Source: an uncultured Gammaproteobacteria bacterium (lineage in GTDB: Bacteria > Patescibacteriota > Patescibacteriia > Buchananbacterales > UBA6539). Taken from it: a stretch of DNA of 64,000 bases. The position numbers and the translations under genes are program-made. The stretch covers positions 20,963 to 84,962 of the forward strand of contig CAZINP010000002.1 in NCBI GenBank assembly GCA_964540635.1. The letters are read 5' to 3'. Below, piece after piece: positions 17,162-60,989 of this stretch. How positions within the stretch are numbered: position 1 is the first letter of the stretch; each line of letters opens with the position of its first letter. The notes beneath the pieces are model-generated. The model was given only the letters and a program-made list of their open reading frames with translations. It did not search any database and was not told the origin of the DNA.

Positions 17162-18565
17162 ATGAAGAGATCCGAATTAGCCTTAACGGCAGTTAAGCCG
17201 CCACTTGATTATTTTAACTTGATTTTGGCGGCTATTGTTGCATATATTTTACGTTACCAGCCATTTACTCAAAAAATTAGGCCGGTGGTTTTTGATTTAC
17301 CTTTTTCGGATTACATATCAATTGCTTTGCCTATTGCCATTGGTTGGATTGTAATTTTTGTAATTTCCGGCCTTTATTCCGTTGGCGGGTTTAAGTCATT
17401 GCGTGAAGAGTTGGCCAGAGTTTTTGTTGCCTGTTCGGCCGGCTTGGCCTTAGTTTTAGCGGTAATGGTTTTTACTCGTTTTTTATTTGATTCCCGTTTT
17501 ATTATTTTAACTTCCTGGATTCTGGCTTTTATTTTTGTAAGTTTGGGGAGAATAATTCTTCAGATTATAAAAAAACAATCATATAAATTTGGTATTGGTG
17601 TTCATCGCTTGGCCTTAATTGGCGATAGTAAAATTGCTCAATTGCTAAATGACGAATTTACCAGTCGACCGACCTTGGGTTATCGAGTAGTTTATCAGGC
17701 CGAAGAGTTTAGCGATACGGTTCAAAGCGAACTTTTTGAATTGAAGAAAAATGATGGCATTGATGAGTTGATCCAAATTAGACCAAATATGTGCGGCCAG
17801 AGAACCATTGATTTAATCAATTTTGCCGAGGAAAATCACTTTGACTTTAAGTATACTGCCGATTTATTAGGTGCACATTTGATAAATCTGGAAGTTAGCA
17901 CTTATGCCGGGCTGCCAATAATAGAAGTGAAGCGCACGCCACTTGATGGCTGGGGGAGGATTCACAAAAGAATTTTTGATATTGCCGTTTCCGGTGTCTT
18001 AATTATTTTATTTTCACCAATAATGTTGATCACTGCCTTGGCGGTTAAATTAACTTCGCCCGGTCCGATACTTTTTAAATATAAGCGTATTGGTCAAAAT
18101 GGTAAGGCGTTTACTTATTTTAAATTCAGATCAATGATTGATAAAGCGCATGAGCTGCGTTTTGATGAAAAGTTTGTCAGCCAGCATGATAATTTACGAG
18201 CCGGCAGTCCGATGATGAAATTTGCCAATGATCCCAGGATTACACCAGTCGGACGATTTATCAGGCGTTTTTCGATTGACGAATTAACGGAATTATTTTT
18301 AGTTTTTGGCGGAAAGATGAGTTTGGTTGGCCCCAGGCCGCATGAGGTTGAGGAGGTAGAGAAGTACAAGCATCACCACAAAAAGGTTTTAACCATCAAA
18401 CCCGGTATGTCTGGTTTGGCGCAAATTTCCGGTCGTTCAGATCTTAATTTTGAAGATGAAGTTAAATTAGATATTTATTATATTGAAAATTGGTCGTTGG
18501 GTTTAGACTTACAGATATTATTCAAAACCCCAATGGCGGTTTTAAGAAGGAGAAATGCAGAATGA
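17162..18565 (+). CDS. undecaprenyl-phosphate sugar phosphotransferase (bacterial sugar transferase, WbaP/CpsE-like)
   Basis: N-terminal TM block; C-terminal 'KRIFDIAVSGVLIILFSPIMLITALAVKLTSPGPILFKYKRIGQNGKAFTYFKFRSM' and 'MSLVGPRP'. Confidence 0.8.
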   Translation: MKRSELALTAVKPPLDYFNLILAAIVAYILRYQPFTQKIRPVVFDLPFSDYISIALPIAIGWIVIFVISGLYSVGGFKSLREELARVFVACSAGLALVLAVMVFTRFLFDSRFIILTSWILAFIFVSLGRIILQIIKKQSYKFGIGVHRLALIGDSKIAQLLNDEFTSRPTLGYRVVYQAEEFSDTVQSELFELKKNDGIDELIQIRPNMCGQRTIDLINFAEENHFDFKYTADLLGAHLINLEVSTYAGLPIIEVKRTPLDGWGRIHKRIFDIAVSGVLIILFSPIMLITALAVKLTSPGPILFKYKRIGQNGKAFTYFKFRSMIDKAHELRFDEKFVSQHDNLRAGSPMMKFANDPRITPVGRFIRRFSIDELTELFLVFGGKMSLVGPRPHEVEEVEKYKHHHKKVLTIKPGMSGLAQISGRSDLNFEDEVKLDIYYIENWSLGLDLQILFKTPMAVLRRRNAE

Positions 18566-19680
18566 AATTAGCCTTAGTGCACGATCATTTAATTCAGGAC
18601 GGCGGCGCAGAAAGAGTTTTGGATGTTTTTGCCGGAATGTACCCCGAAGCCTCAATTTATACCTTGCTTTATGATGAAAAAAAGATGGGTCACCTTTTTT
18701 CTAAGGAGAAAGTAAAAACTTCTTTTTTGCAAAATTGGCCCGGGTCGTTAACTCATTATCAGTGGTTTTTGCCGTTCATGCCTACGGCCACAGAAAGCTA
18801 CGATTTAATGGATTATGATGTTGTTTTATCAAGCTGTTCGGCAATGGCCAAGGGTGTAATTTCCAGATCAAATACCTTGCATTTTTGTTATTGTCATACG
18901 CCAACAAGATATTTATGGTCAGATACTCACAGATACCTTGAAGAGTTAAAATATAATCGTTTGATTAAAAAATTTATACCGACGGTTTTGACAAACTTGA
19001 GAACCTGGGATCAAATCGCGGCAAATCGCGTTGATTATTTTATTGCCAATTCAAAAAATGTGGCTGATCGCATTAAAAAATATTATCGTCGAGACAGCAT
19101 TATTATTCATCCTCCAGTTGAGACGGATAAATTTTTTATTTCAGATAAAATTGGGAACTATTTTTTGACCGGCGGCAGATTGGTGGCCTATAAAAGATTT
19201 GATATCGCAATTAAAGCTTTCAATCGTCTTGGAATCCCTTTGAAAATTTTTGGCACCGGGCCGGAAGAAGAAAATTTGAAAAAAATGGCAAAAGGCAATA
19301 TCGAATTTTTAGGTAAGATTGATTTTGAGGAATTGAAACTTCAATATTCAAAGGCGATTGCTTTCGTGCATCCGCAAATTGAAGATTTTGGAATTACGGC
19401 AGTAGAATCAATGGCTTCCGGTCGGCCCACCATTGCCTTTGCAGCCGGTGGCGCGTGCGAAACCGTGGTTGAAGGAAAAACCGGAACATTTTTTGAAGAT
19501 CAAACGTGGGAATCATTGGCTGACACAGTGGCCAGATTTAAGCCGGATGAATTTAATCCTCAGCAAATCAAAGATTATGCCCAGCAGTTTGGAGTAGAGA
19601 GATTCAAGTCAGAAATTAATACCCTGATTCAAACTGAATGGGAAAAATTAAAAAATTCACAAATTAAATGCGGCTTTTAG
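18562..19680 (+). CDS. glycosyltransferase family 4
   Basis: 'VHDHLIQDGGAERV'; C-terminal 'EDFGITAVESMASGRPTIA' (GT4 E-x7-E region). Start set at ATG 18562 (ATGA overlap with the upstream stop). Confidence 0.75.
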   Translation: MKLALVHDHLIQDGGAERVLDVFAGMYPEASIYTLLYDEKKMGHLFSKEKVKTSFLQNWPGSLTHYQWFLPFMPTATESYDLMDYDVVLSSCSAMAKGVISRSNTLHFCYCHTPTRYLWSDTHRYLEELKYNRLIKKFIPTVLTNLRTWDQIAANRVDYFIANSKNVADRIKKYYRRDSIIIHPPVETDKFFISDKIGNYFLTGGRLVAYKRFDIAIKAFNRLGIPLKIFGTGPEEENLKKMAKGNIEFLGKIDFEELKLQYSKAIAFVHPQIEDFGITAVESMASGRPTIAFAAGGACETVVEGKTGTFFEDQTWESLADTVARFKPDEFNPQQIKDYAQQFGVERFKSEINTLIQTEWEKLKNSQIKCGF

Positions 19681-19684
19681 GGCT

Positions 19685-20809
19685 ATGAGAATTGGTGTTG
19701 ACATTAGATGCCTTCTGGAATCAAAGTATTCCGGCATCAGCGAATATACTTATAATCTTTTAGATAATCTTTTTAAGATTGATCAGGACAATCAATACAT
19801 TTTATTTTACAATGCTTCAAAGAAATCAAAATTACCTGAATTTAATTATTCTAACGTAAAAATTGTTGGTTATAATTTTCCTAATAAATTTTTTAATTTA
19901 TCGCTTAGATTTTTAAAGATTGCTCAAGTTGATAAAATGATTGGCGGAGTTGATGTTTTTTTAATCCCAAATTATTTATTTTTAAATTTATCAAAAGATT
20001 GCAGAAAGGTTTTAATTGTTCACGATTTGTCATTTAAACTTTATCCTGAATTTTTTACCTTAAAGCGAAAACTTTGGCACAAGCTGATCTCTCCCAAAAA
20101 AATGTCACAATCGGTTGATCGAATTGTTGCAATATCAGAAAATACTAAAAATGATTTAATCAAGCACTATGGAATTCCTAAAGATAAAATTGAAGTGGTG
20201 TACCCGGGTATTAGCCAAGCATTTTTTAATAAAATTGATGATGAAGAAAAAATCAGAGTAAAGAATCGATACAATTTGCCTGAAAATTTTGTTTATTACT
20301 TAGGCAACCTTGAACCCAGAAAAAACGTTGAAAGCCTGATTATGGCTTTTGAGCAAATAGAAGATGAAAATCTATCACTTGTTTTAGCCGGAAGCCATGC
20401 TTGGAAATATAAAAAAATAAATCAATTATGGCAAAAATCACCAGCTAAAAAACGAATAAAATTTTTGGGTTATGTTGATTCGGCTGATAAACCAGCTCTA
20501 TATAGTTTGGCCAAAGTTTTTGTTTATCCTTCAATTTATGAGGGTTTTGGGCTGCCACCCGTGGAAGCGATGTCTTGCAATACACCAGTTATTTCAAGCT
20601 CAAATTCTTCTCTGGTTGAGTCGGTGGCTGACGCCGGCATTTTAGTTGACCCTAATAATATAAACGATATTTCCAAGGCGATAAATTTGGTAGTTGAAGA
20701 CGAACAATTGGCCAATAACTTAAGAATTGCCGGTGCCTCTCAGGCACAAAAATTTAAATGGGAATTTACAGCTGAAAAAATTAAAAAGATTTTGGAGGAA
20801 AGGGGATGA
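19685..20809 (+). CDS. glycosyltransferase family 4
   Basis: 'EGFGLPPVEAMSCNTPVISS'. Confidence 0.75.
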   Translation: MRIGVDIRCLLESKYSGISEYTYNLLDNLFKIDQDNQYILFYNASKKSKLPEFNYSNVKIVGYNFPNKFFNLSLRFLKIAQVDKMIGGVDVFLIPNYLFLNLSKDCRKVLIVHDLSFKLYPEFFTLKRKLWHKLISPKKMSQSVDRIVAISENTKNDLIKHYGIPKDKIEVVYPGISQAFFNKIDDEEKIRVKNRYNLPENFVYYLGNLEPRKNVESLIMAFEQIEDENLSLVLAGSHAWKYKKINQLWQKSPAKKRIKFLGYVDSADKPALYSLAKVFVYPSIYEGFGLPPVEAMSCNTPVISSSNSSLVESVADAGILVDPNNINDISKAINLVVEDEQLANNLRIAGASQAQKFKWEFTAEKIKKILEERG

Positions 20810-21921
20810 GGATCGGAATTGACGCGCGAATGTTTGGACCGGAGAGCACGACTGGCATTGGTGCTTATATTAAAAATCTGATTGAAGAACTGTTACTCAT
20901 TGATAATAAAAATGAGTATGTTTTATTTTTAAAAGAACCGGTTTATTCATCATACATTTGCCCGAACGAAAGAGTGAAAAAAGTAAAAGTAGATATACCG
21001 TGGTATTCTTTATCAGAGCAATTAAAGTTTCCCTTTATTTTGTTTAAAGAAAATTTGGATTTGGTACATTTTCCACATTTTAATGCGGCCGTTTTTTATC
21101 CGAAAAAATTTATCGTTACAGTTCACGACATCACGCCGAGATTCTTCCCCGGACCATTGGCTAAAAAAAATATTTTAAGAAGAATCGGCTATAATTTGGT
21201 TTTTAAATTAAGTGTTTTGCGTGCTAAAAAGATTATTACTATTTCAGAGCATACGAAAAATAATTTGATAAATTACTATAAAATTAATCCCAATAAAATT
21301 GAAATTACTTACCTCGGCGTCAATGATTCATTTCAGCCGGTTACTGACAGTCAGCAATTAGTAAATGTTAAAAATAAATATAGAATTTCTAAGCCCTTTA
21401 TTCTTTATCTTGGTGTTTGGCGCGATCATAAAAATTTACCAAATTTAATTCACGCTTTTGAAATTTTAAAAAAGGGTGGGTTGGACGCACAATTGGTTTT
21501 GGGCGGTCAGCCGGATGAACGTTATCCGGAAATAAATTTGACGATAGAAAAATCAGAATTTAAAGAAGACATAGTTTGCCCAGGTTTTGTGGATCAAATT
21601 GATTTGCCTGCCCTCTATACTGCGGCTGAAATTTTTGCCTTACCTTCATTTTGCGAAGGCTTTGGTCTCGTGGCTCTTGAGGCTTTATCTTGCAATACGC
21701 CCGTGGTTGCTTCAAATACAACCAGTTTACCCGAGATTTTAAAAGGAAATGCAAAATATTTTGATCCGCATAATTCAAAGCAAATGGCGGAGGTGATTTT
21801 AAATGTTTTGTCTGATGAGCTGTATCGCAAAAACGTTAGGAATGGCTATCAGGAACTAAGTAAAATATATAAATGGAAAAAAACAGCCGAGGAAACTTTA
21901 AATATTTACACCAAGACTTGA
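20806..21921 (+). CDS. glycosyltransferase family 4
   Basis: 'EGFGLVALEALSCNTPVVAS'; 4-bp overlap with the upstream gene. Confidence 0.75.
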   Translation: MRIGIDARMFGPESTTGIGAYIKNLIEELLLIDNKNEYVLFLKEPVYSSYICPNERVKKVKVDIPWYSLSEQLKFPFILFKENLDLVHFPHFNAAVFYPKKFIVTVHDITPRFFPGPLAKKNILRRIGYNLVFKLSVLRAKKIITISEHTKNNLINYYKINPNKIEITYLGVNDSFQPVTDSQQLVNVKNKYRISKPFILYLGVWRDHKNLPNLIHAFEILKKGGLDAQLVLGGQPDERYPEINLTIEKSEFKEDIVCPGFVDQIDLPALYTAAEIFALPSFCEGFGLVALEALSCNTPVVASNTTSLPEILKGNAKYFDPHNSKQMAEVILNVLSDELYRKNVRNGYQELSKIYKWKKTAEETLNIYTKT

Positions 21922-21965
21922 TTTATGTTATAATTTATTATTATCAATAGATAAAGATAAATATA

Positions 21966-24635
21966 ATGCCAGTCAAAAAACAAAAACAAAAAAAATCTGC
22001 CAAAATCACCAAGAAAAAGATTGTAAAAAAGGCTAAAAGTTTAAAGAATACGGCAAAAAATGCAAAACAGATGAAAGGCTCTAGTGCTAAGGTTGCAAAA
22101 AAGTTAATTAAAGCAAAAAAGACGTCAGTAAAGAAAGTAATTGCCAAAAGAATTAAACATGCAACAAAGTCGAAGGTAAATAAAGTAAAGTCAAGCGATT
22201 TTGTGGGTAAAGTAAATAACTTTAAAAAACAGGATTCATCTGATTCTGTTTTTTTTGCTAAAAAAAGCAAAAAAGCCGAAAATATTTTACAAGAAAAGGT
22301 CGTTAAAACACCCTTACTTTTGGCGCCTGTTAAGGAAAATCATACCGAAGAGTTAATCTTGAGTAAAATCGAGGAACGGGTTGTTCATTTGGAGGATGAG
22401 GTAAGGGAAGAAGATGTGGCTCAACTGGATATTTACCCCGCAAAAATCGAACCAACCTTACAGTATTTGCAAGAGTTAAAAGATGTGAGAATTTTACCGC
22501 AAAAGCATAAAGTGAATTTTTTATCCGGCAACAGTTTTGTTTCCAGATTGCGAGAGCTTGTTAATCCAACGTATAAGCCGGAATTGGTTTTTTCTAATCT
22601 TGATTACGTGCACGAATCAGAAGAAATTGAGGATGTTTTTGCTAAGCCGCAAAAAAATAATTTGTTCCAGTTTAATTATCAAAAAAATTGGCAGCTTAAG
22701 GTTGTCGGATTCTTTTTGGCCGCAATTTTGGTTGTGGCGCCACTGCAAACTTTTTCCTATTATCAAAATTTGGTAAGTACAAAAGACAGAATATTGTACA
22801 TGACTAACGAAGCGATCAATAATTTAAAACTGGGTGAATCGGCGGCAAGAAATTTGGATTTATTCGGTGCAAGCAACCAGTTCGGGCAAGCCAAAGATAA
22901 GTTCGGCCAAGCCCGCCAAGAAGTTGATAATTTAGGCGATTTGACCACGGAAATTTTAAAAATATTGCCCAATGAAAATAGAACAGTTGAATCCGGCGTT
23001 GCTCTTTTGGAGGCAGGGCAATTGATTTCAGAGTCGGGTGAAATTTTGGCAAAAAGCGTTGGAAATGTTTTAGATAATGGTAATTACGATAATTACTATC
23101 AATCTTTGCAGGTTTTTAGGGTTGATTTGTCAATTATAATCCAAAAATATTACCAGGCAAAAGAAAAACTCAAGTCGGTTGATCCGAAAAGTCTTCCAGC
23201 CGAACACCGTGAAAAAATGGCTACTTTGTTAAAATATTTACCGACCGTTGAAAATGGATTAACCGAACTTTATGGCATTACCGATTCAATGCTTTATGCG
23301 CTTGGCGATAAGCAGTGGCAACGCTATCTCTTTATTTTTGTAAACAATAATGAATTGCGAGCCACCGGTGGCTTTCAAGGCTCTTTTGCTTTGGTTGATG
23401 TTGACAGGGGAAAGATTAAAAATATGTCTATCCCGGCTGGTGGAACATATGATATTCAGGGTCAGCTTGTGCCAAGAGTTATTTCCCCAGAACCCCTTCA
23501 TTTAATCAATCCTCGCTGGGAATTTCAAGATTCAAATTGGTGGCCGGATTATCCGACTTCGGCCAAAAAAATCGCCTGGTTCTATACTAACGCCAATAAT
23601 CCTTCAGTTGATGGCGTGATTACCATTTCATCAAATATGATGATTGAATTATTAAAGATTTTTGGACCGATTGAAATGCCCGAATATAATCGCACAATTA
23701 CTGCTGAAAATTTTGAACTTGAAACCCAAAAAATCGTTGAGTTAGAATATGATAAAAAAGTAAATCGACCAAAACAATTTTTAGCAGATTTAGCGCCAAA
23801 ATTAATTGAGAAATTATTCACCGCCGACAAGGAACAGGCCAAAAAATTATTTGAAGCCGCCATTAAAGGCTTAAATGAAAGGCATTTGCTGGTTTATTTT
23901 AATCGGCCTGATTTACAGAAAATTGTTACTGATTTTGGTTGGAGCGGGGAATTGAGGCAAACACAAGGCGACTTTTTGTCTGTTATCCACACAAATATTG
24001 CCGGCGGTAAAACTGATGAAGTTATTGATGATGAAATTAGGCATATCGCTGAGGTTCAGTCTGACGGCTCAATTATTGATACAGTTACAATTATTCGCAA
24101 ACACAATGGTATTCCAAACTCAAATCCTTTTTATGGTGTCCAAAATAATGATTATGTAAGAATCTACGTACCTCTAGGCAGCAGTTTGCTTGAAGCGAGG
24201 GGATTCAAAAGACCGCCTGAAAAGCTTTTTGACAAGCCGTCGTCTGATTTGACTTATGACCAAGATTTGCTTGAAGTTGACACTCAGCAAGAAAAAGATC
24301 CGGTCTCGGGCACTGATATTTATAATGAAAGCGGAAAAACCGTTTTTGGCAATTGGCTAATGCTGCCCGCCGGTTCAATTGGAGAAGTTACCATTAAATA
24401 TAAACTTCCATTCAAACTTGATTCAAGTTCGGCCAATACTTATTTTTACAGTCTTTTGGTGCAAAAACAGTCTGGTACCAAGGACGTAAAAATTATGAGC
24501 AATTTAATTTTAAACGATAATTTTAAAATTGTTGCGAAATTTCCTTCCAATCTTGCGCAAGAAAATAATCAAGTAAATTTCAGTTCAGACTTAAATGTTG
24601 ATCAATTTTATGGTGTTGCATTGGTAAATAAATAA
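21966..24635 (+). CDS. DUF4012-like membrane-anchored surface protein with Lys-rich cytoplasmic N-terminus
   Basis: ~90-aa K-rich N-terminus, then one TM ('VVGFFLAAILVVAPL'), then 'FVNNNELRATGGFQGSFALVDVDRGKI' (the DUF4012 NNxELR.TGGF.GS motif). Confidence 0.55.
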   Translation: MPVKKQKQKKSAKITKKKIVKKAKSLKNTAKNAKQMKGSSAKVAKKLIKAKKTSVKKVIAKRIKHATKSKVNKVKSSDFVGKVNNFKKQDSSDSVFFAKKSKKAENILQEKVVKTPLLLAPVKENHTEELILSKIEERVVHLEDEVREEDVAQLDIYPAKIEPTLQYLQELKDVRILPQKHKVNFLSGNSFVSRLRELVNPTYKPELVFSNLDYVHESEEIEDVFAKPQKNNLFQFNYQKNWQLKVVGFFLAAILVVAPLQTFSYYQNLVSTKDRILYMTNEAINNLKLGESAARNLDLFGASNQFGQAKDKFGQARQEVDNLGDLTTEILKILPNENRTVESGVALLEAGQLISESGEILAKSVGNVLDNGNYDNYYQSLQVFRVDLSIIIQKYYQAKEKLKSVDPKSLPAEHREKMATLLKYLPTVENGLTELYGITDSMLYALGDKQWQRYLFIFVNNNELRATGGFQGSFALVDVDRGKIKNMSIPAGGTYDIQGQLVPRVISPEPLHLINPRWEFQDSNWWPDYPTSAKKIAWFYTNANNPSVDGVITISSNMMIELLKIFGPIEMPEYNRTITAENFELETQKIVELEYDKKVNRPKQFLADLAPKLIEKLFTADKEQAKKLFEAAIKGLNERHLLVYFNRPDLQKIVTDFGWSGELRQTQGDFLSVIHTNIAGGKTDEVIDDEIRHIAEVQSDGSIIDTVTIIRKHNGIPNSNPFYGVQNNDYVRIYVPLGSSLLEARGFKRPPEKLFDKPSSDLTYDQDLLEVDTQQEKDPVSGTDIYNESGKTVFGNWLMLPAGSIGEVTIKYKLPFKLDSSSANTYFYSLLVQKQSGTKDVKIMSNLILNDNFKIVAKFPSNLAQENNQVNFSSDLNVDQFYGVALVNK

Positions 24636-24644
24636 TTTATATAT

Positions 24645-26543
24645 ATGGCAAAAGATAAATTCAGAACAAAAAAGGAAGCTAAATTGATTTCGGAAAACGT
24701 CAAAAAGGGATTGATGTCAATTTATACAAACGGCGACGGGTCAATGCCGGATATTTCTCATTTAGAGGTTCAGCACAGATCAAGATTAAAAGCATTTTTT
24801 ATTGGTATCATCATTGTTTCTTTGGTTTTATCCTCGGTTACGTGGCTTGGCTTTATTTTATTTAATCCAAACAAGACAAATGCAAACAAAAGCATTCAGC
24901 TTCAATTTGACGCACCGCAAGATGTGGCCTCCGGTGACGAGGTTACTTATACTTTGAACTATAAAAATATTGATAAAGTCGGCCTAAAAAATGTTGAAAT
25001 AATGGTAAGATACCCCGATGGTTTTGAGTATATATCAGCCGATCCGGTGCCGGATAATACTTACAATACATCATGGAAAATTGGTGATTTATCAAAGGGT
25101 GATTCAGGAATGATAACCATAAAGGGCAAGTTAATTGGTTCGGTGGGTGAGATTAAGACAATCACAGCAACTGCCTCGTTTAGACCGGAAAATTTTAGTT
25201 CGGATTTTAAAGAGGGTTCTCAGTTTAGCCACCAGATAACATCGTCCATTCTTGAACTTGCCGTTGAAGGGCCCGACAAAGTATTGCCGCAGAAGAAATC
25301 AACTTATAAAATTACTTATAAAAATAATTCAGAGCAGGATTTAAGCAATATAAAAATAATTGCCGTTTATCCTGACAATTTTATTTTTCAAGAATCTGAC
25401 CCTAAAACTTACCAATCAGAAGGCGGTCAAGCTTTAAATAATGAGTGGCGCCTAGAGACTATCCCTAAAAAATCAGAAGGAGTAATTGAGATAACCGGCG
25501 GTTTCGTTACGGATCAGAAACAAAGTCTTGCCAATATGAAATTCCAAATCGGATTTATTGATGATAATTCTGATTTCTCACTCCAACACGAAAAAACATT
25601 CCAAACCGAAGTGATTGATGCAAATTTGAATTTGAATTTAATCATAAACGGATCAACTCAAAATCAACCGATTGTTTTCGGTCAGACATTAACATACTCT
25701 TTGACTTACAAAAATATTGGCCAAAAGGAGCTGGATGATGTTTCTTTTTCGGTCTCAATTGATTCGGATATTGTTGACTGGGAAACGCTTGAAGATAAAA
25801 ATGGCGGCAAAAGAGACGGCAATCAAATAACTTGGAATAAGGATCAAATATCTCAGTTTGATCTTATTAGGCCCTTGGATGAAGGTACGATTGATTTTTC
25901 AATTAAAGTTAAAGAAGGCGCTCGAGTTGATTTAAGTAAGGTTAAATTAATTGTTCTCAGTAAGGCAGTGGCAACAATTAGTAAGATTGGCGATATTGAA
26001 TCTCCGGATGTAAAAATAGAATCACCCGAAATTCAAAATAATGTTAACACGGATATTGATTTAAAAGTTGAGGGCAGATATTTTGATGACGACAATATGG
26101 CGGTTGGCACCGGTCCTTTGCCGCCGGTAGTTGGTCAAGAAACAACATTTAGAATTTATTGGTCGATCTCTAACAGTCTTCATGATGTCTCGGACGTGAT
26201 CGTAAAAGCCGTTTTACCGCAAGGGGTTGATTGGCATGACAAACAGTACATTAAAACCGGCAATTTAAAATATGACCCGTCAAGCCGCGAAGTGACTTGG
26301 ACTATCGGTAGAATTTCGCCAAATAAATCATACGAAGATGTAAATTGCTGGTTTGACCTTTCGGTTGTTCCAACCGAAAGTCAGGTTAAAAAGTTGATTA
26401 TTTTGATTGATCAGGCAACATTAACAGCCACCGACAAGTCAACCGATTCAGAAATTACAAAGACCGCCAAAGCCGTAACTTCAAATTTAGACGATGACGT
26501 GGTTGGCGGCGGTAAAGGGTTGGTGATTGATATTACCGAATAG
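24645..26543 (+). CDS. membrane-anchored surface protein with repeated DUF11/CARDB-like beta-sandwich domains
   Basis: One N-terminal TM; repeats 'YTLNYKNIDKVGLKNVEIMVRYPDGFEY', 'YKITYKNNSEQDLSNIKIIAVYPDNFIF', 'YSLTYKNIGQKELDDVSFSVSI'. Confidence 0.55.
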   Translation: MAKDKFRTKKEAKLISENVKKGLMSIYTNGDGSMPDISHLEVQHRSRLKAFFIGIIIVSLVLSSVTWLGFILFNPNKTNANKSIQLQFDAPQDVASGDEVTYTLNYKNIDKVGLKNVEIMVRYPDGFEYISADPVPDNTYNTSWKIGDLSKGDSGMITIKGKLIGSVGEIKTITATASFRPENFSSDFKEGSQFSHQITSSILELAVEGPDKVLPQKKSTYKITYKNNSEQDLSNIKIIAVYPDNFIFQESDPKTYQSEGGQALNNEWRLETIPKKSEGVIEITGGFVTDQKQSLANMKFQIGFIDDNSDFSLQHEKTFQTEVIDANLNLNLIINGSTQNQPIVFGQTLTYSLTYKNIGQKELDDVSFSVSIDSDIVDWETLEDKNGGKRDGNQITWNKDQISQFDLIRPLDEGTIDFSIKVKEGARVDLSKVKLIVLSKAVATISKIGDIESPDVKIESPEIQNNVNTDIDLKVEGRYFDDDNMAVGTGPLPPVVGQETTFRIYWSISNSLHDVSDVIVKAVLPQGVDWHDKQYIKTGNLKYDPSSREVTWTIGRISPNKSYEDVNCWFDLSVVPTESQVKKLIILIDQATLTATDKSTDSEITKTAKAVTSNLDDDVVGGGKGLVIDITE

Positions 26544-28333: not shown

Positions 28334-28384
28334 AATTTAGCCCCTTACCACAGCCAATGAATTTTGATATAATATAGATAGATT

Positions 28385-28744
28385 ATGAGCAATAGAATTT
28401 CAAAAAATATAGCCTTAGAGATTTTGCTTGATTTTTTGTTTTGGCCGATTTGGTGGTATTCTGCCGGTTTTTTAAAAGTTTTAACTTCGGCATTCGGACA
28501 AGTTGTCTATCAGTATGAATATCTTGGTTTGGGAGTGTGGATTAAAAATATATTTACGCCAATGTATGGCATGTATGATTGGGAAAGTCGGATTATTAGT
28601 TTTTTGGTCAGAATTGCCCAAATTTTTGTCAGAGGAATTTTATTGATTCTTTGGACGTTTTTCATTTTGTGTGGCGTTATTATTTGGTTGGTTTTGCCGA
28701 TTTTTATTGTCTTTCAAATTTATTCAATTATAATTGTGATTTAA
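28385..28744 (+). CDS. small hypothetical membrane protein
   Basis: Three hydrophobic segments. Confidence 0.4.
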   Translation: MSNRISKNIALEILLDFLFWPIWWYSAGFLKVLTSAFGQVVYQYEYLGLGVWIKNIFTPMYGMYDWESRIISFLVRIAQIFVRGILLILWTFFILCGVIIWLVLPIFIVFQIYSIIIVI

Positions 28745-31498
28745 ATGGACGCTAATAAGAGCCAAAAATTTGATTTGATAAATTGCCCGAAATGCAATGG
28801 TCTTGGTTATTTTGAGGGTAAAACTTGTCCGGTTTGCTCCGGGTGGCGTTTGGTTGCCGTTTCGGATAATCGTATTTTTGTTTGGGGAAATGAGATAAGT
28901 AATTTTGAGTTTTTGCGGGAAAGAACTCATAGCATAATTGCCGGTTTGGTAAATTTTATTTTTTTAGCTTTTGGTCTTTTTGGAATCATTGTTTTGGGTT
29001 TAAAAATTTATAATTCTGAACAATCGCCACTTTTTTTATGGAATGCGCTCAGTTCCAAAGACGCTTTAATGTTAGTGTTTTGGTTATCACTTCTCGCTGA
29101 TTTATATTTATTTTATAAATTTGAAAGAGACCAGGAGAAAATTAAGTACCTACCTTCGCTAAGAAAAAAATTAAAAAAGAGAATATCGCAGCCACTAAAT
29201 TTTGAAAAAATTAATCAGAGACATATTTTTAAAATTGAGCCTTACTTTTCTTCGGGTGCCAGAAATGTTATCTACCAGGCTTGGTTAAAGGCAAGAAAGT
29301 TCAATAACTTTGAAGTTTTACCTTTGCATCTACTGATTTCACTTCTTAAAACCCGCCAAATTGAAGTTGTTTTTGGAAGATTGGGCACTCCGTTTTCTTC
29401 TTTAAAATCTAGAATAGAAAGCAGTTTGAGCGGATTAATGATCGATAAAAGTAAAACAATATTAAGCGATAAGCTTATTGCTATTATCTATCAATCTTTT
29501 TTCTTTTCTTTAAACAATCGTCAGAAAAAGGTTGAGATCCTAAATCTTTTTGAGGAAATGGCACTTCAGGAAAATGAAGTTAAAACGATTTTTTACGATT
29601 TAGATATTACTGAGGAAAAATCAAAAAATATTGTTGCCTGGATAAGGGTTAATGATATTTTACGCGATCGTTGGCACCACTTTCGCCAACGGGCAATTTT
29701 AAGGCCGAAATCAGGTTTAAATCGTTCAATGACGGCTATTGCTACACCAACCCTAAATGCTTTTGCCCAGGATTTAACGATGTTGGCTCAGTTTGGCTAC
29801 TTGATGCCGTGCATTGGCCGAGAAAAAGAATTCGAAACGATTTTTAGCGTGCTTAGCGGCGGACCAAGGCGTAGCGTGCTTTTAGTTGGCAACCCTGGTG
29901 TCGGCAAAAATACAATCATTGAGGGTTTAGCCCAAAAAATGGTTGAAGAAGATGTACCGGAATTTTTGCAAGATAAACGTTTGGTGAGTTTGAGTATTGC
30001 CAAGGTGGTTAGCGGTGTGGATCCGTCCGTTGCTCAAGGTAGACTTTTAATGATTTTGAATGAAATTAGGCGCTCCGGTAATATAATTCTTTATATTAGT
30101 GAAATTCAAAATTTAGTCGGAATAACCTCGGGAATGCAGGGGAGCATGGATTTAAGTGATGTTTTAGCTCAATTTTTAAGTAACAATACTGTTCTTTGCC
30201 TAGCCTCAACCTTGCCCGGAGATTATAAGCGCTATATTGAAGATAAAACTTCAGTGGATAATGTTTTTGAAAAACTGGAAATTAATGAGACGTCCGGCGA
30301 TGAAGCAATTCAAATCTTAGAAGCTAAGGTTGGTTCAATTGAGTATAAGGAAAATATTTTCTTTTCCTATGATGCAATTGCCAGCACCGTTGAATTTTCA
30401 AGCCGATATTTACACGATAGATATTTGCCGGAAAAGGCAATTCAGATTTTGCAAGAAGTCGCAAATTTAGTTCATGCCCAAAAAGGAAAAAATGCTCTTG
30501 TAACCGGGAATGACGTCGCTCAGTTAATCTCAGAAAAAACTAATATTCCTTTAACTGAAATTACGGCCGAGGAATCACAAAAATTGTTAAATTTAGAAGA
30601 TCAGATTCACCAAAGAATGATTGACCAAGAAGAAGCGGTTAAGATGGTTTCTGACAGCTTAAGGCGAGCCAGGGCGGAGATGAGAGATATTAAGCGTCCA
30701 ATTTCCAATTTTCTTTTTCTCGGTCCTACTGGCGTTGGTAAAACCGAATTGGCAAAATCTGTTGCGGAAGTGTATTTTGGCTCGGAGAAAAATATGGTTC
30801 GCTTGGATATGTCAGAATATCAAGAAAAAACCTCGATTAATCGTTTAATTGGTGCGCCAGCTGGTTATTCGGGCAGTGAAACCGGGGGATTCTTAACTGA
30901 AGCAATCAGAAAAAATCCATTTTCATTAATTTTACTTGATGAAATTGAAAAGGCACATCCGGATATTTTGAATTTATTTTTACAGGTGATGGATGATGGA
31001 CGCCTAACCGATTCCAATGGCAAAACAATAGATTTTACCAACGCGATATTGATTGCAACCTCAAATGCCGGAACTAAATTGATCCAGCAAAGAGTTCGTG
31101 AAAACATTTCTGTAATTAAAATTAAAGAAGAGTTGGTTGCTGGTGAATTGTTAAATTATTTTAGGCCTGAATTTTTAAATCGTTTTGACGGCATTATTGT
31201 GTTTAAGCCCCTGGCTCTTGAAGACGTGAAAGCCATTGCTAAATTGATGATAAATAAAGTGGCCAAAGATTTAGACGAAAAAGGAATTGGTTTGGTGGCA
31301 ACCGAAGAGGGCATTGAGTCCTTGGCTCAATTGGGCTATGACCCGGAATTTGGCGCCAGACCCCTAAGACGAGTTATTCAAGAAAAGATTCAAGATGAAT
31401 TGGCAAATTTAATTATCTCAAAGTCATTAAACAGACGCGATGTTGTCACCATTGGTTTAGGCGCTGTTTTATCGGTTAATAAGGCAAGTAAAATTTGA
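28745..31498 (+). CDS. membrane-anchored Clp/Hsp100-family AAA+ protein with N-terminal C4 zinc ribbon and degenerate NBD1
   Basis: Zinc ribbon 'CPKCNGLGYFEGKTCPVC', then two TM helices and Clp_N-like repeats. NBD1 Walker A is 'GNPGVGKNT' (Thr to Asn) and Walker B is 'ILYISEIQ' (DE to SE). NBD2 is canonical ('GPTGVGKTE', '[12 protein letters not shown]'). There is no ClpB-type M-domain. Confidence 0.75.
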   Translation: MDANKSQKFDLINCPKCNGLGYFEGKTCPVCSGWRLVAVSDNRIFVWGNEISNFEFLRERTHSIIAGLVNFIFLAFGLFGIIVLGLKIYNSEQSPLFLWNALSSKDALMLVFWLSLLADLYLFYKFERDQEKIKYLPSLRKKLKKRISQPLNFEKINQRHIFKIEPYFSSGARNVIYQAWLKARKFNNFEVLPLHLLISLLKTRQIEVVFGRLGTPFSSLKSRIESSLSGLMIDKSKTILSDKLIAIIYQSFFFSLNNRQKKVEILNLFEEMALQENEVKTIFYDLDITEEKSKNIVAWIRVNDILRDRWHHFRQRAILRPKSGLNRSMTAIATPTLNAFAQDLTMLAQFGYLMPCIGREKEFETIFSVLSGGPRRSVLLVGNPGVGKNTIIEGLAQKMVEEDVPEFLQDKRLVSLSIAKVVSGVDPSVAQGRLLMILNEIRRSGNIILYISEIQNLVGITSGMQGSMDLSDVLAQFLSNNTVLCLASTLPGDYKRYIEDKTSVDNVFEKLEINETSGDEAIQILEAKVGSIEYKENIFFSYDAIASTVEFSSRYLHDRYLPEKAIQILQEVANLVHAQKGKNALVTGNDVAQLISEKTNIPLTEITAEESQKLLNLEDQIHQRMIDQEEAVKMVSDSLRRARAEMRDIKRPISNFLFLGPTGVGKTELAKSVAEVYFGSEKNMVRLDMSEYQEKTSINRLIGAPAGYSGSETGGFLTEAIRKNPFSLILLDEIEKAHPDILNLFLQVMDDGRLTDSNGKTIDFTNAILIATSNAGTKLIQQRVRENISVIKIKEELVAGELLNYFRPEFLNRFDGIIVFKPLALEDVKAIAKLMINKVAKDLDEKGIGLVATEEGIESLAQLGYDPEFGARPLRRVIQEKIQDELANLIISKSLNRRDVVTIGLGAVLSVNKASKI

Positions 31499-32541
31499 TG
31501 AAATATTTAATCCCATTTATTGTTTCCCTGGCTTTTTCTTTAATTCTAACGCCCATAGTAAAAAATATAGCTATGAAGTTGGGTGTTGTGGATATGCCGG
31601 GTGAAAGAAAAATACATAAAACCCCCATACCCCTAAGCGGCGGCTTAGCGGTATTTTTATCATTTTCGCTTTCGGTTATAATTTTTTGGCTTTTTGCCTC
31701 TTTAACTGATGCCAAAGTTAATGACTATTATATTTTATTAATATTAATCTCCGGACTCATTCTTATTATTGGCGGGTTATTGGATGATATTTTCAATTTA
31801 AAGCCGTGGCAGCAACTTTTTTTTCCAATATTGGCAATAATCATTGTTTTGCTTTCCGGCATAAGAATTAATTTCGTTACTAATCCATTGGGCGGGTATA
31901 TTCAGTTCCCGGTTTTTGTCGGAACGATTATTGCGTTTTTCTGGATCTTGGGAATGATTTACACGACAAAATTTTTAGACGGATTAGACGGCCTTGTCAG
32001 CGGCGTTACCGTCATTGGATCTCTTATTATTTTTGCATTAAGTCTTTCGTGGGATATAAGCGATTCAGCCACATCATATTTAAGTTTGATTTTAGCCGGT
32101 TCTTGTTTGGGATTTTTATTTTACAATTTTAACCCGGCCAAAATATTTTTAGGCGAAGGGGGGAGTGTATTTTGCGGTTTTATGCTTGGCTTATTGGCGA
32201 TTATTTCCGGATCAAAAATAGCCACGGCTTTATTAATAATGGGTATTCCAATTTTAGATGTAATCTGGGTGATTGCCAGAAGAATAATACAAAGAAAATC
32301 TCCGGCCTCGGCTGATCGCAAGCACCTCCATTTTCGGCTTTTGGATATTGGCTTAAGTCATAAACAAGCCGTGGTGTTTCTTTATTTGATTACCGCTGCT
32401 TTTGGTTTAACTTCATTATTTTTAAAATCAAAAGGAAAATTAATCGCCCTGGTGGTTTTGATTTTTTTTATGTTACTCTTGGCCGCCAGCTTGGTTTTTG
32501 CCTATAAACGAAAACAAAAAAATGAAAACACCGGAATTTAA
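31495..32541 (+). CDS. polyprenyl-phosphate N-acetylhexosamine-1-phosphate transferase (MraY/WecA/TagO family, GT4)
   Basis: Ten-TM protein with 'NFNPAKIFLGEGGSVFCGFMLG' and 'DGLDGL', typical of MraY/WecA. Confidence 0.7.
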   Translation: MMKYLIPFIVSLAFSLILTPIVKNIAMKLGVVDMPGERKIHKTPIPLSGGLAVFLSFSLSVIIFWLFASLTDAKVNDYYILLILISGLILIIGGLLDDIFNLKPWQQLFFPILAIIIVLLSGIRINFVTNPLGGYIQFPVFVGTIIAFFWILGMIYTTKFLDGLDGLVSGVTVIGSLIIFALSLSWDISDSATSYLSLILAGSCLGFLFYNFNPAKIFLGEGGSVFCGFMLGLLAIISGSKIATALLIMGIPILDVIWVIARRIIQRKSPASADRKHLHFRLLDIGLSHKQAVVFLYLITAAFGLTSLFLKSKGKLIALVVLIFFMLLLAASLVFAYKRKQKNENTGI

Positions 32542-34015
32542 ATCATATAAACTTGATTTTATTGTTTTAATCTCCGGCATCTCGGTTATGGTTCTTGAGT
32601 TGGTTGGCGCCAGAATTCTAGCGCCTTATGTTGGTACTTCAATGTTTGTTTGGGCCTCACTGATTGGCGTTGTTTTAGGCTCACTAACAATTGGCTATTA
32701 TTTAGGCGGCTATTTTTCTGAAAAAAATCCAAATTTGAATTTTCTTTCAAATATTTTATTGATTTCCGGTGTTGTAATTTTACTTCTTTGTTTTTTGAAA
32801 GACGATTTAATGAAGTTATCATTGTACTTTGGCGTTAAGAGCGGATCAATATTTTCTTCATTAATTTTATTTTCTGCACCAAGCATACTTTTAGGCATGG
32901 TCTCTCCCTATGCCATACGCTTAAAAATCATCGATGTTCATAGTTCCGGCGAGGTTGCCGGCAAACTTTATGCCTTATCAACCATCGGCAGTATTATTGG
33001 TACATTTTTGGCCGGTTTTTATCTTATCCCGACATTTGGCAGTTCGCAAATAATGTTTGGCATTGCCGGCACATTAATAATTTCGGCCTTGGCCGTTAAT
33101 TTCAATTTTTTAAAAATACTTATTTTTATTGTTTTTCTTGGGTCATCTTTTTTTGTTTTTGACAGCAACGATAATTTGATAATTTACGAAACAGATAGCG
33201 AGTATAACCATATCAGAGTCGCTGATTATATTGATCAGGATAATAGGCCAACGAGAATTTTGTATTTGGCAACCGAGGCTCACTCGGCTATTTATCGTGA
33301 TTCAGATGAGTTGTTTCCGGGTTACTTTCAATACTACCAACTTGATGAAATTTTCAAACCAGAAATCAAAACGGCACTTAATATTGGTGGTGGGGCTTAC
33401 GTTGGTCCAATTAACTTTTTAAAAAGATTTCCCGAAGCTAAAATTACGGTTGTTGAAATTGATCCAAAGGTAACCGAAGTTGCTAAAAAATATTTTAACT
33501 TAGAAGAAAACCCGCGTTTAAATATTGTTCATGCCGACGGCAGAATATTTTTAAATAACAATAAAGAAAAATTTGATGTGATTTATGGCGATGCTTTCGG
33601 TTCTTATTATTCCGTGCCTTTTCAGCTCACCACAAAAGAAGCAATGCAAAAAATATACAATTCTTTAAATGACGATGGTATTTTTTTGATGAATATAATT
33701 TCGTCAATTGCCGGCGATGGCTCTATTTTTTTTCAATCAGAATTTAAAACTTTATCCGAAATTTTTCCCCAGCTTTATGTTTTTCCCGTCAAATATCACG
33801 AAAAAGATGATATCAATAAACATCAAAACATAATTCTTGTGGCAACAAAAAGTTCGTTTAGATTAAGCCTTGAAGAGATGAAATCAAGAGCAAACGAAAA
33901 GCAAAAAGATCTTGTAAAAAGCTATTGGAGTGATGGAATTAATCTTGATCAAAACATTGAAGTACTAACTGATAATTTTGCTCCTGTCGATTATTACATC
34001 TCAAAAATATTATAA
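32522..34015 (+). CDS. spermidine-synthase-like methyltransferase-fold protein fused to an N-terminal polytopic membrane domain
   Basis: ~200-aa TM domain, then 'ALNIGGGAYVGPINFLKRFPEAKITVVEIDPKVTEVAKKYF' and 'IYGDAFGS' (spermine/spermidine synthase family). Confidence 0.6.
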   Translation: MKTPEFKSYKLDFIVLISGISVMVLELVGARILAPYVGTSMFVWASLIGVVLGSLTIGYYLGGYFSEKNPNLNFLSNILLISGVVILLLCFLKDDLMKLSLYFGVKSGSIFSSLILFSAPSILLGMVSPYAIRLKIIDVHSSGEVAGKLYALSTIGSIIGTFLAGFYLIPTFGSSQIMFGIAGTLIISALAVNFNFLKILIFIVFLGSSFFVFDSNDNLIIYETDSEYNHIRVADYIDQDNRPTRILYLATEAHSAIYRDSDELFPGYFQYYQLDEIFKPEIKTALNIGGGAYVGPINFLKRFPEAKITVVEIDPKVTEVAKKYFNLEENPRLNIVHADGRIFLNNNKEKFDVIYGDAFGSYYSVPFQLTTKEAMQKIYNSLNDDGIFLMNIISSIAGDGSIFFQSEFKTLSEIFPQLYVFPVKYHEKDDINKHQNIILVATKSSFRLSLEEMKSRANEKQKDLVKSYWSDGINLDQNIEVLTDNFAPVDYYISKIL

Positions 34016-53689: not shown

Positions 53690-53702
53690 TCGTACTTTAT
53701 TT

Positions 53703-58373: not shown

Positions 58374-60989
58374 ATGCTAAATCCACAAAAATTAACAATA
58401 AAAGCTCAGGAAGCATTGCAAATTGCCCTGGAATTGGCCATGGAAAGAAATCAGCAGCAAATTTCCGTGGCGCATTTATTATTGGCTCTGATCGAGCAAG
58501 AAGATGGCGTTGTTTTACCCATTTTTAAAAAGCTGGAAGTTGACCTTGTCAAATTAAGAAATCAACTTCAAAAAATAATTGGCAATATACCGGAAGGTTC
58601 GACTAATGGCAGTATTCAGCCTTTTATGGAAGCATCATTACAAAAAAGTTTTATTTCCGCTGAAAATCAAGCAAAAAATTTAGGCGATGAATATATCAGC
58701 ACCGAACATTTTCTTTTGGGTATACTCGAGGTTAAATCTGAGACTTCCGATTATTTAAAAGCAATCAACATTGACTATCAAGAGGTTTTAAAAGTTTTGA
58801 AAGAAATCAGAGGAACTCACCGGGTTATTGATCAAGATCCCGAAAGCCAATATCAGGCCCTGAAAAAATACGGGATTAATTTAACCGATCAAGCCCGAGC
58901 CGGCAAATTGGATCCGATAATCGGCCGCGATCAAGAGATAAGACGGGTGATGCAAGTTTTGTCGCGCAAAACCAAAAACAATCCGGTTCTTATTGGTGAA
59001 CCAGGCACAGGTAAAACCGCCATCGTTGAAGGCTTAGCCCAAAGAATTGTGGCCGGTGATGTGCCTGAGAATATAAAAAGCAAGGAGGTTATCACTCTTG
59101 ATATCGGCAGCTTAGTGGCCGGCAGTAAGTTCAGAGGTGAATTTGAAAATCGCTTAAAAGCCGTTCTTAAAGAAGTTGAGGCTTCAGCCGGCAAAATTAT
59201 AATTTTTATTGACGAATTACACTTGGTGGTAGGCGCCGGCGGTTCCGAAGGAGCGGTTGATGCGGCCAATATGCTTAAACCCGCTTTGGCTCGCGGCACA
59301 CTTCATGCCATTGGCGCTACAACAATCAAAGAATATCAAAAATATATTGAAAAAGATGCGGCCCTGGAAAGACGCTTTCAGCCGGTTTTGGTCGGAGAAC
59401 CGACAATTGAAGATACAATTGCAATTCTTCGGGGCATTAAAGAAAAATATGAGGTTCATCACGGCGTTAAAATTACCGACAACGCTTTAGTGGCTGCCGC
59501 CAATTTATCAACCAGATATATTTCTGACAGATTTCTACCGGATAAAGCCATTGATTTAATTGATGAAGCGACTTCGGCGCTAAGAATGGAAATTGACTCG
59601 ATGCCGGACGAATTGGATACTTTAAAAAGAAAGATCATCCAGCTCGAAATTGAGAAACAAGCTCTTAAAAAAGAAAATAACGATCAAAGCAAAAAACGTC
59701 TTAGAGATCTGGAAAAAGAAATGGCCAATCTCAGGGAAAAGAGCAACCAAATAGAAATTCATTGGCAAAACGAAAAGAACCTGATTAAAAAAATTCAGGA
59801 GAACAAAAATCTTATTGACCAATTAAAAAATGAAGCTGAAATTGCCGAACGAAAAGGGGAGCTGGAACGTGTGGCAGAAATTAAATACGGAAAAATACCG
59901 AGCTTGGAAAAAGAGATTAAAAAACTCTACAACTCTTTGACCGAAATTCAAAGAGACAAAAAGATGCTTAAGGAAGAAGTCACGGCCGAAGATATTGCCG
60001 CGGTGGTTTCTCGCTGGACAGGCATTCCCGTTTCAAAAATGCTTGAAAGCGAAAGCCATAAATTGTTGAATTTGGAAGAAGAATTAAAACAACGCATTAT
60101 CGGACAAGACAAAGCGATTTCAGCCATTGCCAACGCCGTCAGACGTTCTCGGGCCGGAATTTCGGAAGAAAACAGGCCAATTGGCACATTTATGTTCCTT
60201 GGCCCAACCGGTGTGGGTAAAACCGAAACCGCCAAAGCCTTAGCGGAATTTATGTTCAACGACGACAAATCGCTTGTAAGAGTTGATATGTCTGAATATA
60301 TGGAAAAATACAGCGTAAGTAAAATCATCGGCTCACCTCCCGGATATGTCGGTTATGAAGAAGGTGGTCAACTTACCGAAATTATCAGACGCCGTCCCTA
60401 TGCGGTAATCTTGTTTGATGAAATTGAAAAAGCCCACCCTGACGTTTTTAACATTTTACTTCAAATTCTAGACGAAGGAAGATTAACAGATGCCAAAGGC
60501 AGGGTTGTTAATTTCAAAAATACGATAATTATTTTGACCTCAAACCTTGGCAGCGATGTTATCAAAGAATTTTCATTGGGATTTACCGACAAGGAAAGAG
60601 ACGGCAAAATTGACCAAAAAGAAATGGAGGCTCAAATCACTGATATTTTACATCGCTCATTCAAACCGGAATTCCTAAACCGCTTAGATGAATTAATTAT
60701 CTTTTCTTCACTCAAGCAGTCCGAGATCAGAAAAATTGTTGATTTGCAACTCAAAAAGATATCAACCAGATTATTGGAAAAAGAAATTAAAATTGATGCC
60801 ACCTCAAAGCTAAAAGATTATTTGGCCAAAACCGGTTATGATCCGATTTATGGCGCCAGGCCAATTAAGCGATTGATTCAGGAAAAAATTCTTGACGAGC
60901 TGGCCATGAAAATTATTGAGGGTAAAGTCACCCGAGGACAAAAAATCAAAATTGACCTTGGACCCAAAGACGAAATTATCATCAAATAA
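58374..60989 (+). CDS. clpB: chaperone ClpB (Hsp100, with M-domain coiled coil)
   Basis: Clp_N repeats; NBD1 '[17 protein letters not shown]' / 'IIFIDELH'; long coiled-coil middle domain; NBD2 '[16 protein letters not shown]' / '[13 protein letters not shown]'. Confidence 0.9.

Follow-up and report, generated by a model that had tools for sequence, protein, structure and literature searches.

The subject of this article is a gene of the Clp/Hsp100 ATPase family that lies on the forward (+) strand of a 64,000-nucleotide (nt) stretch of contig CAZINP010000002.1, the whole of which I will call the window. From N- to C-terminus its product combines a predicted C4 zinc ribbon, a predicted two-helix membrane hairpin, a Clp_N fold, a degenerate first nucleotide-binding domain (NBD1), a canonical second one (NBD2) and a D2-small domain, and it belongs to a family widespread in the ultra-small Patescibacteria that has so far been annotated only as AAA family ATPase or ClpC. 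A preliminary description of this DNA had placed an open reading frame (ORF) of 917 amino acids (aa) at 28745..31498, which is borne out exactly, and had read in it a zinc ribbon, two transmembrane (TM) helices, a Clp_N region and two AAA+ modules of which the first is degenerate; all four of these elements are confirmed here, and I hold the statements on architecture, taken together, with high confidence. The gene and its parts are as follows:

28745..31498 (+): the whole Clp/Hsp100-family ATPase gene, an intact ORF of 917 aa with an ATG start
28772..28882 (+): predicted C4 zinc ribbon with a beta-hairpin (residues 10-46), CPKCNGLG...CPVCSGWR, of the DnaJ CxxCxGxG type
28901..29014 (+): predicted TM helix 1 with a juxtamembrane extension (AlphaFold2, or AF2, helix at residues 53-90; hydrophobic core at 61-91)
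29063..29137 (+): predicted TM helix 2 (residues 107-131; hydropathy and AF2) with the motif FWLSxxxDxYLxYR, followed by a basic linker
29237..29611 (+): Clp_N-fold double-repeat domain (residues 165-289; Foldseek against the PDB)
29789..30544 (+): NBD1, a degenerate AAA+ module with its lid (residues 349-600), having GK388-N389 and S452-E453, no arginine fingers, no aromatic pore loop and no M-domain insertion
30572..31204 (+): NBD2, a canonical AAA_2 module (residues 610-820; PF07724, 207.6 bits)
31211..31453 (+): ClpB_D2-small domain (residues 823-903; PF10431, 78.4 bits) with sensor-2 GAR872PLRR

The protein was examined with Pfam and NCBIfam (equivalog cut-offs), BLASTP, HMMER, hhalign, AF2, Foldseek against the PDB and a 19-residue Kyte-Doolittle (KD) scan. 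On the full protein, Pfam places AAA_2 at residues 651-815 and AAA_lid_9 at 519-584 (42.2 bits), and it gives NBD1 itself only weak generic P-loop matches. Aligned by BLASTP to the ClpB that is also encoded in the window (58374..60989), NBD1 is 32% identical (E 6e-38) and NBD2 45% (E 2e-93), and the closest solved structure by sequence is S. aureus ClpC (E 3e-150). The gene at 58374 had been named as the canonical clpB and it is a true ClpB, scoring 1270.7 bits on the equivalog model TIGR03346, above the cutoff of 1232.1, on which the present protein obtains 590.7 bits; on the ClpA equivalog TIGR02639 it obtains 539.7 bits versus a cutoff of 993.15, in one continuous match over residues 173-901, and with each of the ClpB, ClpA, ClpV, ClpK and ClpG equivalogs it reaches about half of the cutoff. 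Its sequence class is best given as class-I Hsp100, about equally near to ClpC, ClpA and ClpB, and the earlier label of a ClpC-like body holds for sequence similarity but not otherwise, the protein having neither an M-domain nor a ClpP loop. An identical protein (P0159) is on record, nameless, in two independent sources, NCBI and Logan.

Relatives are numerous. A full-length search returned 295 proteins at E<=1e-50, the best of which apart from P0159 is 58% identical, and at E<=1e-3 HMMER matched the N-terminal 349 residues to 278 cluster representatives, of which most have about 900 aa and align from the zinc ribbon on. The notion of an orphan N-terminus, for which a word-indexed search gave 2 matches and a profile search 13, was rejected because the exhaustive HMMER scan gave these 278. 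The nearest relatives are Buchananbacteria-like (56-58% identity), those with a name come from Buchananbacteria, Falkowbacteria, Parcubacteria, Uhrbacteria and 'Patescibacteria group' metagenome-assembled genomes (MAGs), and the names that the sources attach to the proteins are 'AAA family ATPase' or 'ATP-dependent Clp protease ATP-binding subunit (ClpC)' only. Conservation was counted in a family set of 263 non-redundant full-length relatives, all apparently Patescibacteria, and gene order in a locus scan of one genome per GTDB species with a single family-specific peptide pattern, which gave 217 confirmed loci; the 80 that were kept for neighbourhood counts belong to Patescibacteria MAGs, or to evidently mislabelled MAGs with the same gene order of the Candidate Phyla Radiation (CPR). 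The paralogue that had been described beside ClpB therefore exists as described, but it is no one-off: it belongs to a Patescibacteria-wide family.

The feature that most clearly sets this family apart from a working tandem ATPase is its first ring. As had been reported, the NBD1 Walker A motif, from G382, reads GNPGVGK388-N389-T versus GEPGTGKTA in the window's ClpB, and Walker B reads ILYI-S452-E453 versus IIFIDE; to these can now be added a pore loop VDPSVAQ where ClpB and ClpC have K(Y/F)RGEFE (KFRGEFE), and arginine fingers changed from ERRF to D-N506-V507-F, neither of which was in the preliminary description. Across the 263 members the P-loop position carries Lys in 214 and Arg in 43 (257/263 together), while the Walker-A Thr/Ser is present in 118, the catalytic Glu in 7 (with Asn in 132 and Asp in 88 instead), the two arginine fingers in 16 and 13, and an aromatic pore loop in 5; in a first set of 86 relatives the P-loop glycines are invariant or nearly so. 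Mean pairwise identity in the 263 members is 0.65 for NBD2, 0.43-0.45 for NBD1 and 0.19-0.29 for the N-terminal modules. With the P-loop and 43-45% identity kept and the catalytic residues lost, NBD1 is conserved as a fold and a P-loop, not as an enzyme. Sequencing errors had been named as one way in which the description of the odd motifs could fail, but the closest relatives (50-58% identity) mostly carry GVG[KR]N[TS] and a canonical DE is found in 0 of the 45 closest, so the substitutions are inherited. The claim of a pseudo-ATPase is strengthened by the loss of the arginine fingers and pore Tyr and by the rarity of the catalytic Glu, and I conclude that NBD1 is, judging by its motifs, catalytically dead but retained.

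NBD2, on the other hand, is canonical, as had been claimed, with GPTGVGK666T667, D732-E733, the pore loop AGY708SG, sensor-1 N774, R813 and GAR872PLRR, and its Walker A, Walker B, arginine finger and sensor-2 are each found in 262-263 of the 263 members. What the protein does not have are the parts by which better-known relatives couple to their partners. It carries no M-domain, since the alignment skips ClpB residues 401-521 and residues 516-600 of the protein are lid only, and ClpC residues ~400-460, which form the short M-domain of ClpC, have no counterpart either. Similarly, the ClpP-docking loop was looked for and the 'RFAGFGGSS' segment of ClpC aligns to a gap, with no x-G-F/L in the loop; the x-G-[FL] pattern occurs elsewhere in the protein only, in TM helix 1 and at residues 848 and 903, and between sensor-1 and arginine finger, in the docking-loop region, all relatives examined have 7 residues fewer than ClpB.

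At the other end of the protein, the CxxC pairs stand at residues 14-17 and 28-31, the first motif (CPKCNGLG) being an exact CxxCxGxG and the second reading CPVCSGWR here, where the family consensus again has CxxCxGxG. None of 92 aligned relatives lacks any of the four Cys, and 231-237 of the 263 family members have them, the Cys-less remainder being mostly N-terminally truncated gene calls. When the family profile was compared with a DnaJ of the CPR by hhalign, the Cys-rich region was matched at a probability of 89% (E 2e-6); on PF00684 (DnaJ_CXXCXGXG) the protein scores 13.9 bits and its relatives up to 21.1, below the cutoff of 32.7, and Pfam on residues 1-349 gives sub-threshold matches to DnaJ_CXXCXGXG and Anti-TRAP, with no match to the ClpX-type zinc-finger model at E<=1. 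The ribbon is thus best described as a predicted metal site of the DnaJ type, a type that the preliminary description had missed. The Pfam accession PF27659.1 is precomputed on the N-termini of some relatives (P0002, P0169 and P0173); the N-terminal module may perhaps have been catalogued recently.

The membrane hairpin follows the ribbon. TM helix 1 has a KD maximum of 2.59 over residues 61-91 and a value of at least 1.6 in 260 of the 263 relatives, and the hydrophobic segment of TM helix 2 (residues 106-126) has a value of 1.64, with F112, W113, Y124 and R125 each kept in more than 210/263. There are 12 Lys and Arg in the 36 residues after TM helix 2 (125-160) and 1 in the 18-residue loop between the helices, which is short, length-variable and poorly conserved across the family; this positive-inside charge distribution argues for an N-in/C-in topology. 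Residues 1-349 were modelled by AF2 from an alignment of 92 relatives; the model has a predicted local distance difference test score (pLDDT) of 89.4 and a predicted template-modelling score (pTM) of 0.85, and contains strands at 10-13, 36-40 and 43-46, a helix at 53-90, a short helix at 97-103 and a helix at 107-131, after which come an extended linker, an eight-helix bundle at 170-285 and two long linker helices. Hydropathy, charge distribution and the AF2 helices therefore agree on a predicted hairpin that would put the zinc ribbon and the AAA+ body on the same, cytosolic side of the membrane. Searched with Foldseek against the PDB, the bundle matches the N-domains of HSP101, ClpC1, ClpB, ClpA and Hsp104 with probability 1.00 and a template-modelling (TM-) score to target of 0.75-0.87; the top match is the Plasmodium HSP101 N-domain (E 4e-6), and ClpB has a TM-score to target of 0.85. 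Pfam Clp_N is below threshold in the protein itself, and it is passed by the relative P0007 (30.8 bits versus a gathering score of 20.7).

The genes around this one belong to the story as well, and the nearest features are these:

28345..28373 (+): site resembling a promoter (TTACCA-17 nt-TATAAT, preceded by a TG; 10/12 consensus matches), 11 nt before mem119, the first gene of the putative operon
28385..28744 (+): mem119, a small membrane protein of 119 aa, whose stop codon abuts the Clp start codon
31495..32541 (+): GT4, a polyprenyl-phosphate glycosyl-1-phosphate transferase of the WecA/MraY superfamily (PF00953, 107.9 bits)
32498..34015 (+): fused MFS/spermidine-synthase-like membrane protein, the last gene of the putative operon (NF037959, 283 bits versus a cutoff of 40)

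The promoter-like site is weak evidence alone, because the scan found no more such sites than in shuffled sequence. The small gene mem119, unmentioned in the preliminary description, is the strongest association at the locus: 78 of the 78 loci that have upstream sequence carry a homologue as the next gene before the Clp gene and on its strand (in the other 2 of the 80 the contig ends), with a median gap to the Clp gene of about 3 nt and 30-53% identity between the homologues. Its invariant residues are P21, W23, W24, G28, P59, M60, S72 and R76, set in the motifs P-x-WWY-xx-G and W-xx-N-x-F-x-PM-x-GQ-x-D-xx-GR-xx-S-xxx-R, after which comes a hydrophobic C-terminal half (residues 69-119). It has no Pfam or NCBIfam match, a mem119 profile found nothing in the PDB, and a single-sequence structure model of two long helices (pLDDT 79.5, pTM 0.49) is of little use. 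R76 (window 28610-28612) is invariant in 79/79 and stands at the start of the hydrophobic half, and an Asp in Clp TM helix 2 (D118/D119 region, window 29096-29098) is present in 148/263 members and in 0/6 of the short, mem119-less orthologues discussed below; an intramembrane contact between the two is possible. Pairing of this Asp with the mem119 Arg as a general feature was rejected, given that the Asp is found in those 148 members only.

Downstream, the GT4 product falls well short of the equivalog cutoffs for WecA and MraY. The 4-bp overlap that had been claimed between the two genes holds if GT4 starts at TTG 31495, but not with ATG 31498, where the overlap with the Clp stop (TGA, 31496-31498) is 1 nt; this ATG is the likely start and is the one used by the public gene call, for a 347-aa product. 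GT4 may be translationally coupled to the Clp gene in a putative operon, and it follows the Clp gene in 57 of the 65 loci with enough sequence, within 150 nt in 40. In one MAG the two are a single in-frame fusion (P0005, L083:4001-7696, 1231 aa), in which the first TM helix of GT4 is deleted and the Clp C-terminus is joined to what comes after it; the junction is topologically plausible, and it may be a real fusion or an assembly deletion. The GT4 and MFS/spermidine-synthase genes overlap as well (32498 versus 32541); the spermidine-synthase fusion that had been described accompanies the Clp gene in just 6/80 loci, which all belong to the closest clade. As to the role at the envelope that had been proposed, membrane tethering is now well supported; the role itself is an inference, and the link to GT4 would follow from the conserved adjacency, in a region where rplU, recR and dnaB are syntenic too, and from one fusion.

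Directly upstream of tgt, an alkD-like gene, mem119 and clp, the window carries a run of envelope genes (17162-26543, +) encoding a Bac_transf sugar transferase, three GT1 glycosyltransferases, a DUF4012 protein (889 aa) and a DUF11/CLIPPER-repeat surface protein (632 aa); the DUF4012 protein, the DUF11-repeat protein and tgt are also found upstream in the loci of the closest relatives. Further afield, a 1397-aa protein with an M23 peptidase, CARDB and many Ig-like domains (12109-16302, +), whose GC content of 0.47 compares with about 0.36 elsewhere, may be a surface or lytic protein gained by horizontal transfer, and the minus strand at 16672-17045 carries a full-length bacterial RNase P RNA of class A (220 bits). 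A SecD homologue (48253-49944, +) has a PpiC-type rotamase domain at residues 139-239, between the N-terminal P1 segment and the P1 head, and is an unusual translocon-foldase fusion; and a TrwB/VirD4-like coupling ATPase (53634-55661, +) has a HerA/DUF87-type domain and a C-terminal treble-clef zinc finger.

How might such a protein work? The reading that I favour, to which I would give a probability of about one half for the mechanism as a whole, is that of an unfoldase or extractase with a single motor, tethered to the membrane at its cytoplasmic face and working independently of ClpP. Rings that bind ATP without hydrolysing it serve as assembly platforms in NSF-D2 and PEX1/6-D1, and NBD1 would in the same way bind and not hydrolyse nucleotide, acting as the assembly or scaffold ring, while NBD2 would be the sole motor and supply all of the force. 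In cryo-electron microscopy structures of ClpB, Hsp104 and ClpA, the N-domains lie on the NBD1 face and the substrate passes from NBD1 to NBD2. Since the N-domains crown the entry face in known Hsp100 hexamers, six N-terminal hairpins would keep that face close to the membrane on its cytoplasmic side, in an FtsH/Msp1-like geometry, and the proteins that the machine pulls on, so as to unfold, extract or remodel them, would be embedded in the membrane or associated with it. The Cys-rich region of DnaJ binds unfolded clients, and here the zinc ribbons, the Clp_N domains and mem119 could select or present the substrate. The product would be released to the cytosol and not into ClpP, with no coupling to Hsp70, independence from DnaK being suggested by the missing M-domain. 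The clients are likely to be envelope-biogenesis proteins, with the GT4 transferase as one candidate.

Several observations weigh against this mechanism. TM helix 2 is only moderately hydrophobic (family median KD 1.44), and the threading direction would be borrowed, by analogy, from other Hsp100s. The aromatic G[YFW] of the NBD2 pore loop is kept in 58/263 members only; the protein studied and most of its clade keep the Tyr, a Magasanikbacteria-type clade has a shorter, conserved NBD2 loop, 'IGQP-G-QQG(T/S)G(I/L)LTE' (corresponding to residues 703-714, window 30851-30886), and most family members have no aromatic pore loop in either ring with an intact NBD2 active site, so classical threading cannot be the conserved function of the whole family. 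Furthermore, six or more cluster representatives that are about 600 aa long (P0153, P0155 and P0096, also P0088, P0089 and P0154) stop after the NBD1 lid ('...VP[YF]TK[IV]LK') without any NBD2, and the three such loci that were checked (L081:6001-7824, L084:3153-4982 and L085:1470-3272) occupy the usual position before GT4 and rplU. Their persistence at the same genomic position argues that part of the function needs no motor, and that the membrane module with its pseudo-NBD1 probably has some motor-independent role. The flanks of these three loci hold no mem119 homologue; NBD2 and mem119 appear to be lost together, which would tie mem119 to the motor. Lastly, rplU, recR and dnaB also follow in conserved order, and because the whole stretch is syntenic, the adjacency of GT4 is weak evidence of a functional link.

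It is the missing pore aromatics and the NBD2-less orthologues that keep alive two readings that do without threading. In the first, which I consider unlikely if still credible, the protein would be a regulator or scaffold of envelope-glycan initiation, with the zinc ribbon, hairpin, Clp_N domain and pseudo-NBD1 organising or gating GT4, and with NBD2 adding ATP-dependent remodelling or turnover in some lineages only. GT4 is adjacent in 57/65 loci and also in the NBD2-less orthologues, the single in-frame Clp-GT4 fusion is joined at a point that makes topological sense, the window has envelope glycosyltransferase genes close by, and the aromatic pore loop is missing from NBD2 in 205/263 members and from NBD1 in 258/263, all of which would suit such a regulator. 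However, nearly all full-length members (262-263 of 263) have the catalytic motifs of NBD2, and no other domain is as conserved, which argues that the motor is central and not accessory; the protein studied retains its pore-loop Tyr; the conserved adjacency of rplU, recR and dnaB makes gene order unspecific; and the fusion, found in a single MAG, could be an assembly deletion. In the second reading, rather less likely still, this would be a Patescibacteria-specific Hsp100 machine that forms a membrane complex with mem119 and combines a nucleotide-locked pseudo-ring with one active ring, the two operating without the classical aromatic pore loops, which most members lack in both rings. Its ATP-driven motion would reach the membrane module and serve there to extract, gate or remodel envelope-biogenesis proteins (e.g., GT4), not to thread polypeptides.

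A further possibility, which I regard as improbable, is that of an export or insertion motor that pushes cytosolic proteins into a channel made of its own hairpins and mem119, in the manner of HSP101 and EXP2 in the Plasmodium translocon of exported proteins (PTEX). A hexamer would present a ring of 12 TM helices, together with the helices of its partner, coaxial with the AAA+ pore, the HSP101 N-domain is the best structural match of the N-domain, and Patescibacteria are thought to depend on a surface-attached lifestyle. The polarity is the wrong one, however, since the exit face (NBD2) is what meets the pore in PTEX and here the N-terminal anchor would turn the entry face to the membrane; in addition, the outer loop is short, length-variable and poorly conserved, and the HSP101 match is only marginally better than those to the N-domains of ClpB, ClpC and ClpA.

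That the protein is an ordinary ClpP partner of the ClpC/ClpA type, as its public annotation has it, seems very improbable to me: the best PDB and NCBIfam sequence matches are indeed ClpC, ClpB and ClpA, and relatives are named ClpC or 'Clp protease ATP-binding subunit', but the (I/L/V)G(F/L) docking loop is deleted in this protein and in all relatives examined, the scores are about half of every equivalog cutoff, and both the membrane anchor and the inactive NBD1 speak against it. A sequencing or assembly artefact, or a decaying pseudogene, is effectively refuted by the intact ORF, by the identical protein in NCBI and Logan, by GVG[KR]N[TS] in most of the closest relatives and by 263 members whose NBD1 is kept at 43-45% identity.

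Set beside known systems, the favoured extractase would draw on several of them and coincide with none. Like ClpC, ClpA and ClpB it has Clp_N, tandem AAA+ modules and D2-small, and like ClpA it has no M-domain; unlike them it carries a predicted zinc ribbon and TM hairpin, and an NBD1 without the Walker-A Thr, the Walker-B Asp, the arginine fingers and the pore Tyr, and it is missing both the ClpP-docking loop of ClpA and ClpC and the coiled-coil M-domain of ClpB and ClpC. As in ClpE and ClpX, which are soluble and dock ClpP, the Clp ATPase chain begins with a C4 zinc module, but its zinc motif is a DnaJ-type CxxCxGxG pair. FtsH, too, anchors its AAA+ module to the cytoplasmic face with two N-terminal TM helices in each subunit, a geometry that suits membrane extraction, whereas FtsH consists of one AAA module of another clade, an M41 metalloprotease and a sizeable periplasmic domain; here the outer loop is short, and Pfam gives no Peptidase_M41 match in the Clp protein, which has no protease domain. 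Msp1/ATAD1 is likewise an N-terminally anchored AAA+ extractase, but with one TM helix, one AAA ring and membership of an unrelated clade. In NSF (D2), PEX1/PEX6 (D1) and p97-type proteins an inactive ring keeps its P-loop without the machinery for hydrolysis and is considered to keep the hexamer assembled while its counterpart does the work, a pattern that the NBD1 counts here fit (P-loop Lys/Arg in 257/263, catalytic Glu in 7/263); these are eukaryotic, soluble and of other AAA+ clades, and I know of no such division of labour with one dead ring among bacterial Hsp100s, nor was any found in the literature searched. Plasmodium HSP101, finally, is an Hsp100 that is coaxial with a membrane assembly and has the N-domain that is the top structural match, but it is not itself membrane-embedded, has two active rings and turns its exit side to the pore. 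The literature searched contained no membrane-anchored Hsp100 and no account of this Clp family, although its coverage was incomplete and this is absence of evidence only.

What would all of this mean for the biology of these bacteria? To my knowledge, Hsp100/Clp unfoldases are soluble, have two working rings and are coupled to ClpP or Hsp70, and the present family breaks all three of these rules, being predicted to be membrane-embedded, with one dead ring and neither coupling element. The public labels "ClpC" and "AAA family ATPase" imply a ClpP-dependent proteolysis that the sequence does not support. The family also offers a natural experiment on the purpose of an inactive D1 ring, and it provides a concrete two-gene module. 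Patescibacteria account for much of bacterial diversity, and their genomes are tiny and carry little redundancy; now considering that a 2.7-kb gene and its dedicated partner are maintained at a fixed position in at least 217 species-level genomes, it is likely that they are important for envelope or membrane proteostasis. If the non-threading membrane machine were true, the Hsp100 fold would have a mode of action that is new to it, and the CPR an envelope factor that defines the lineage.

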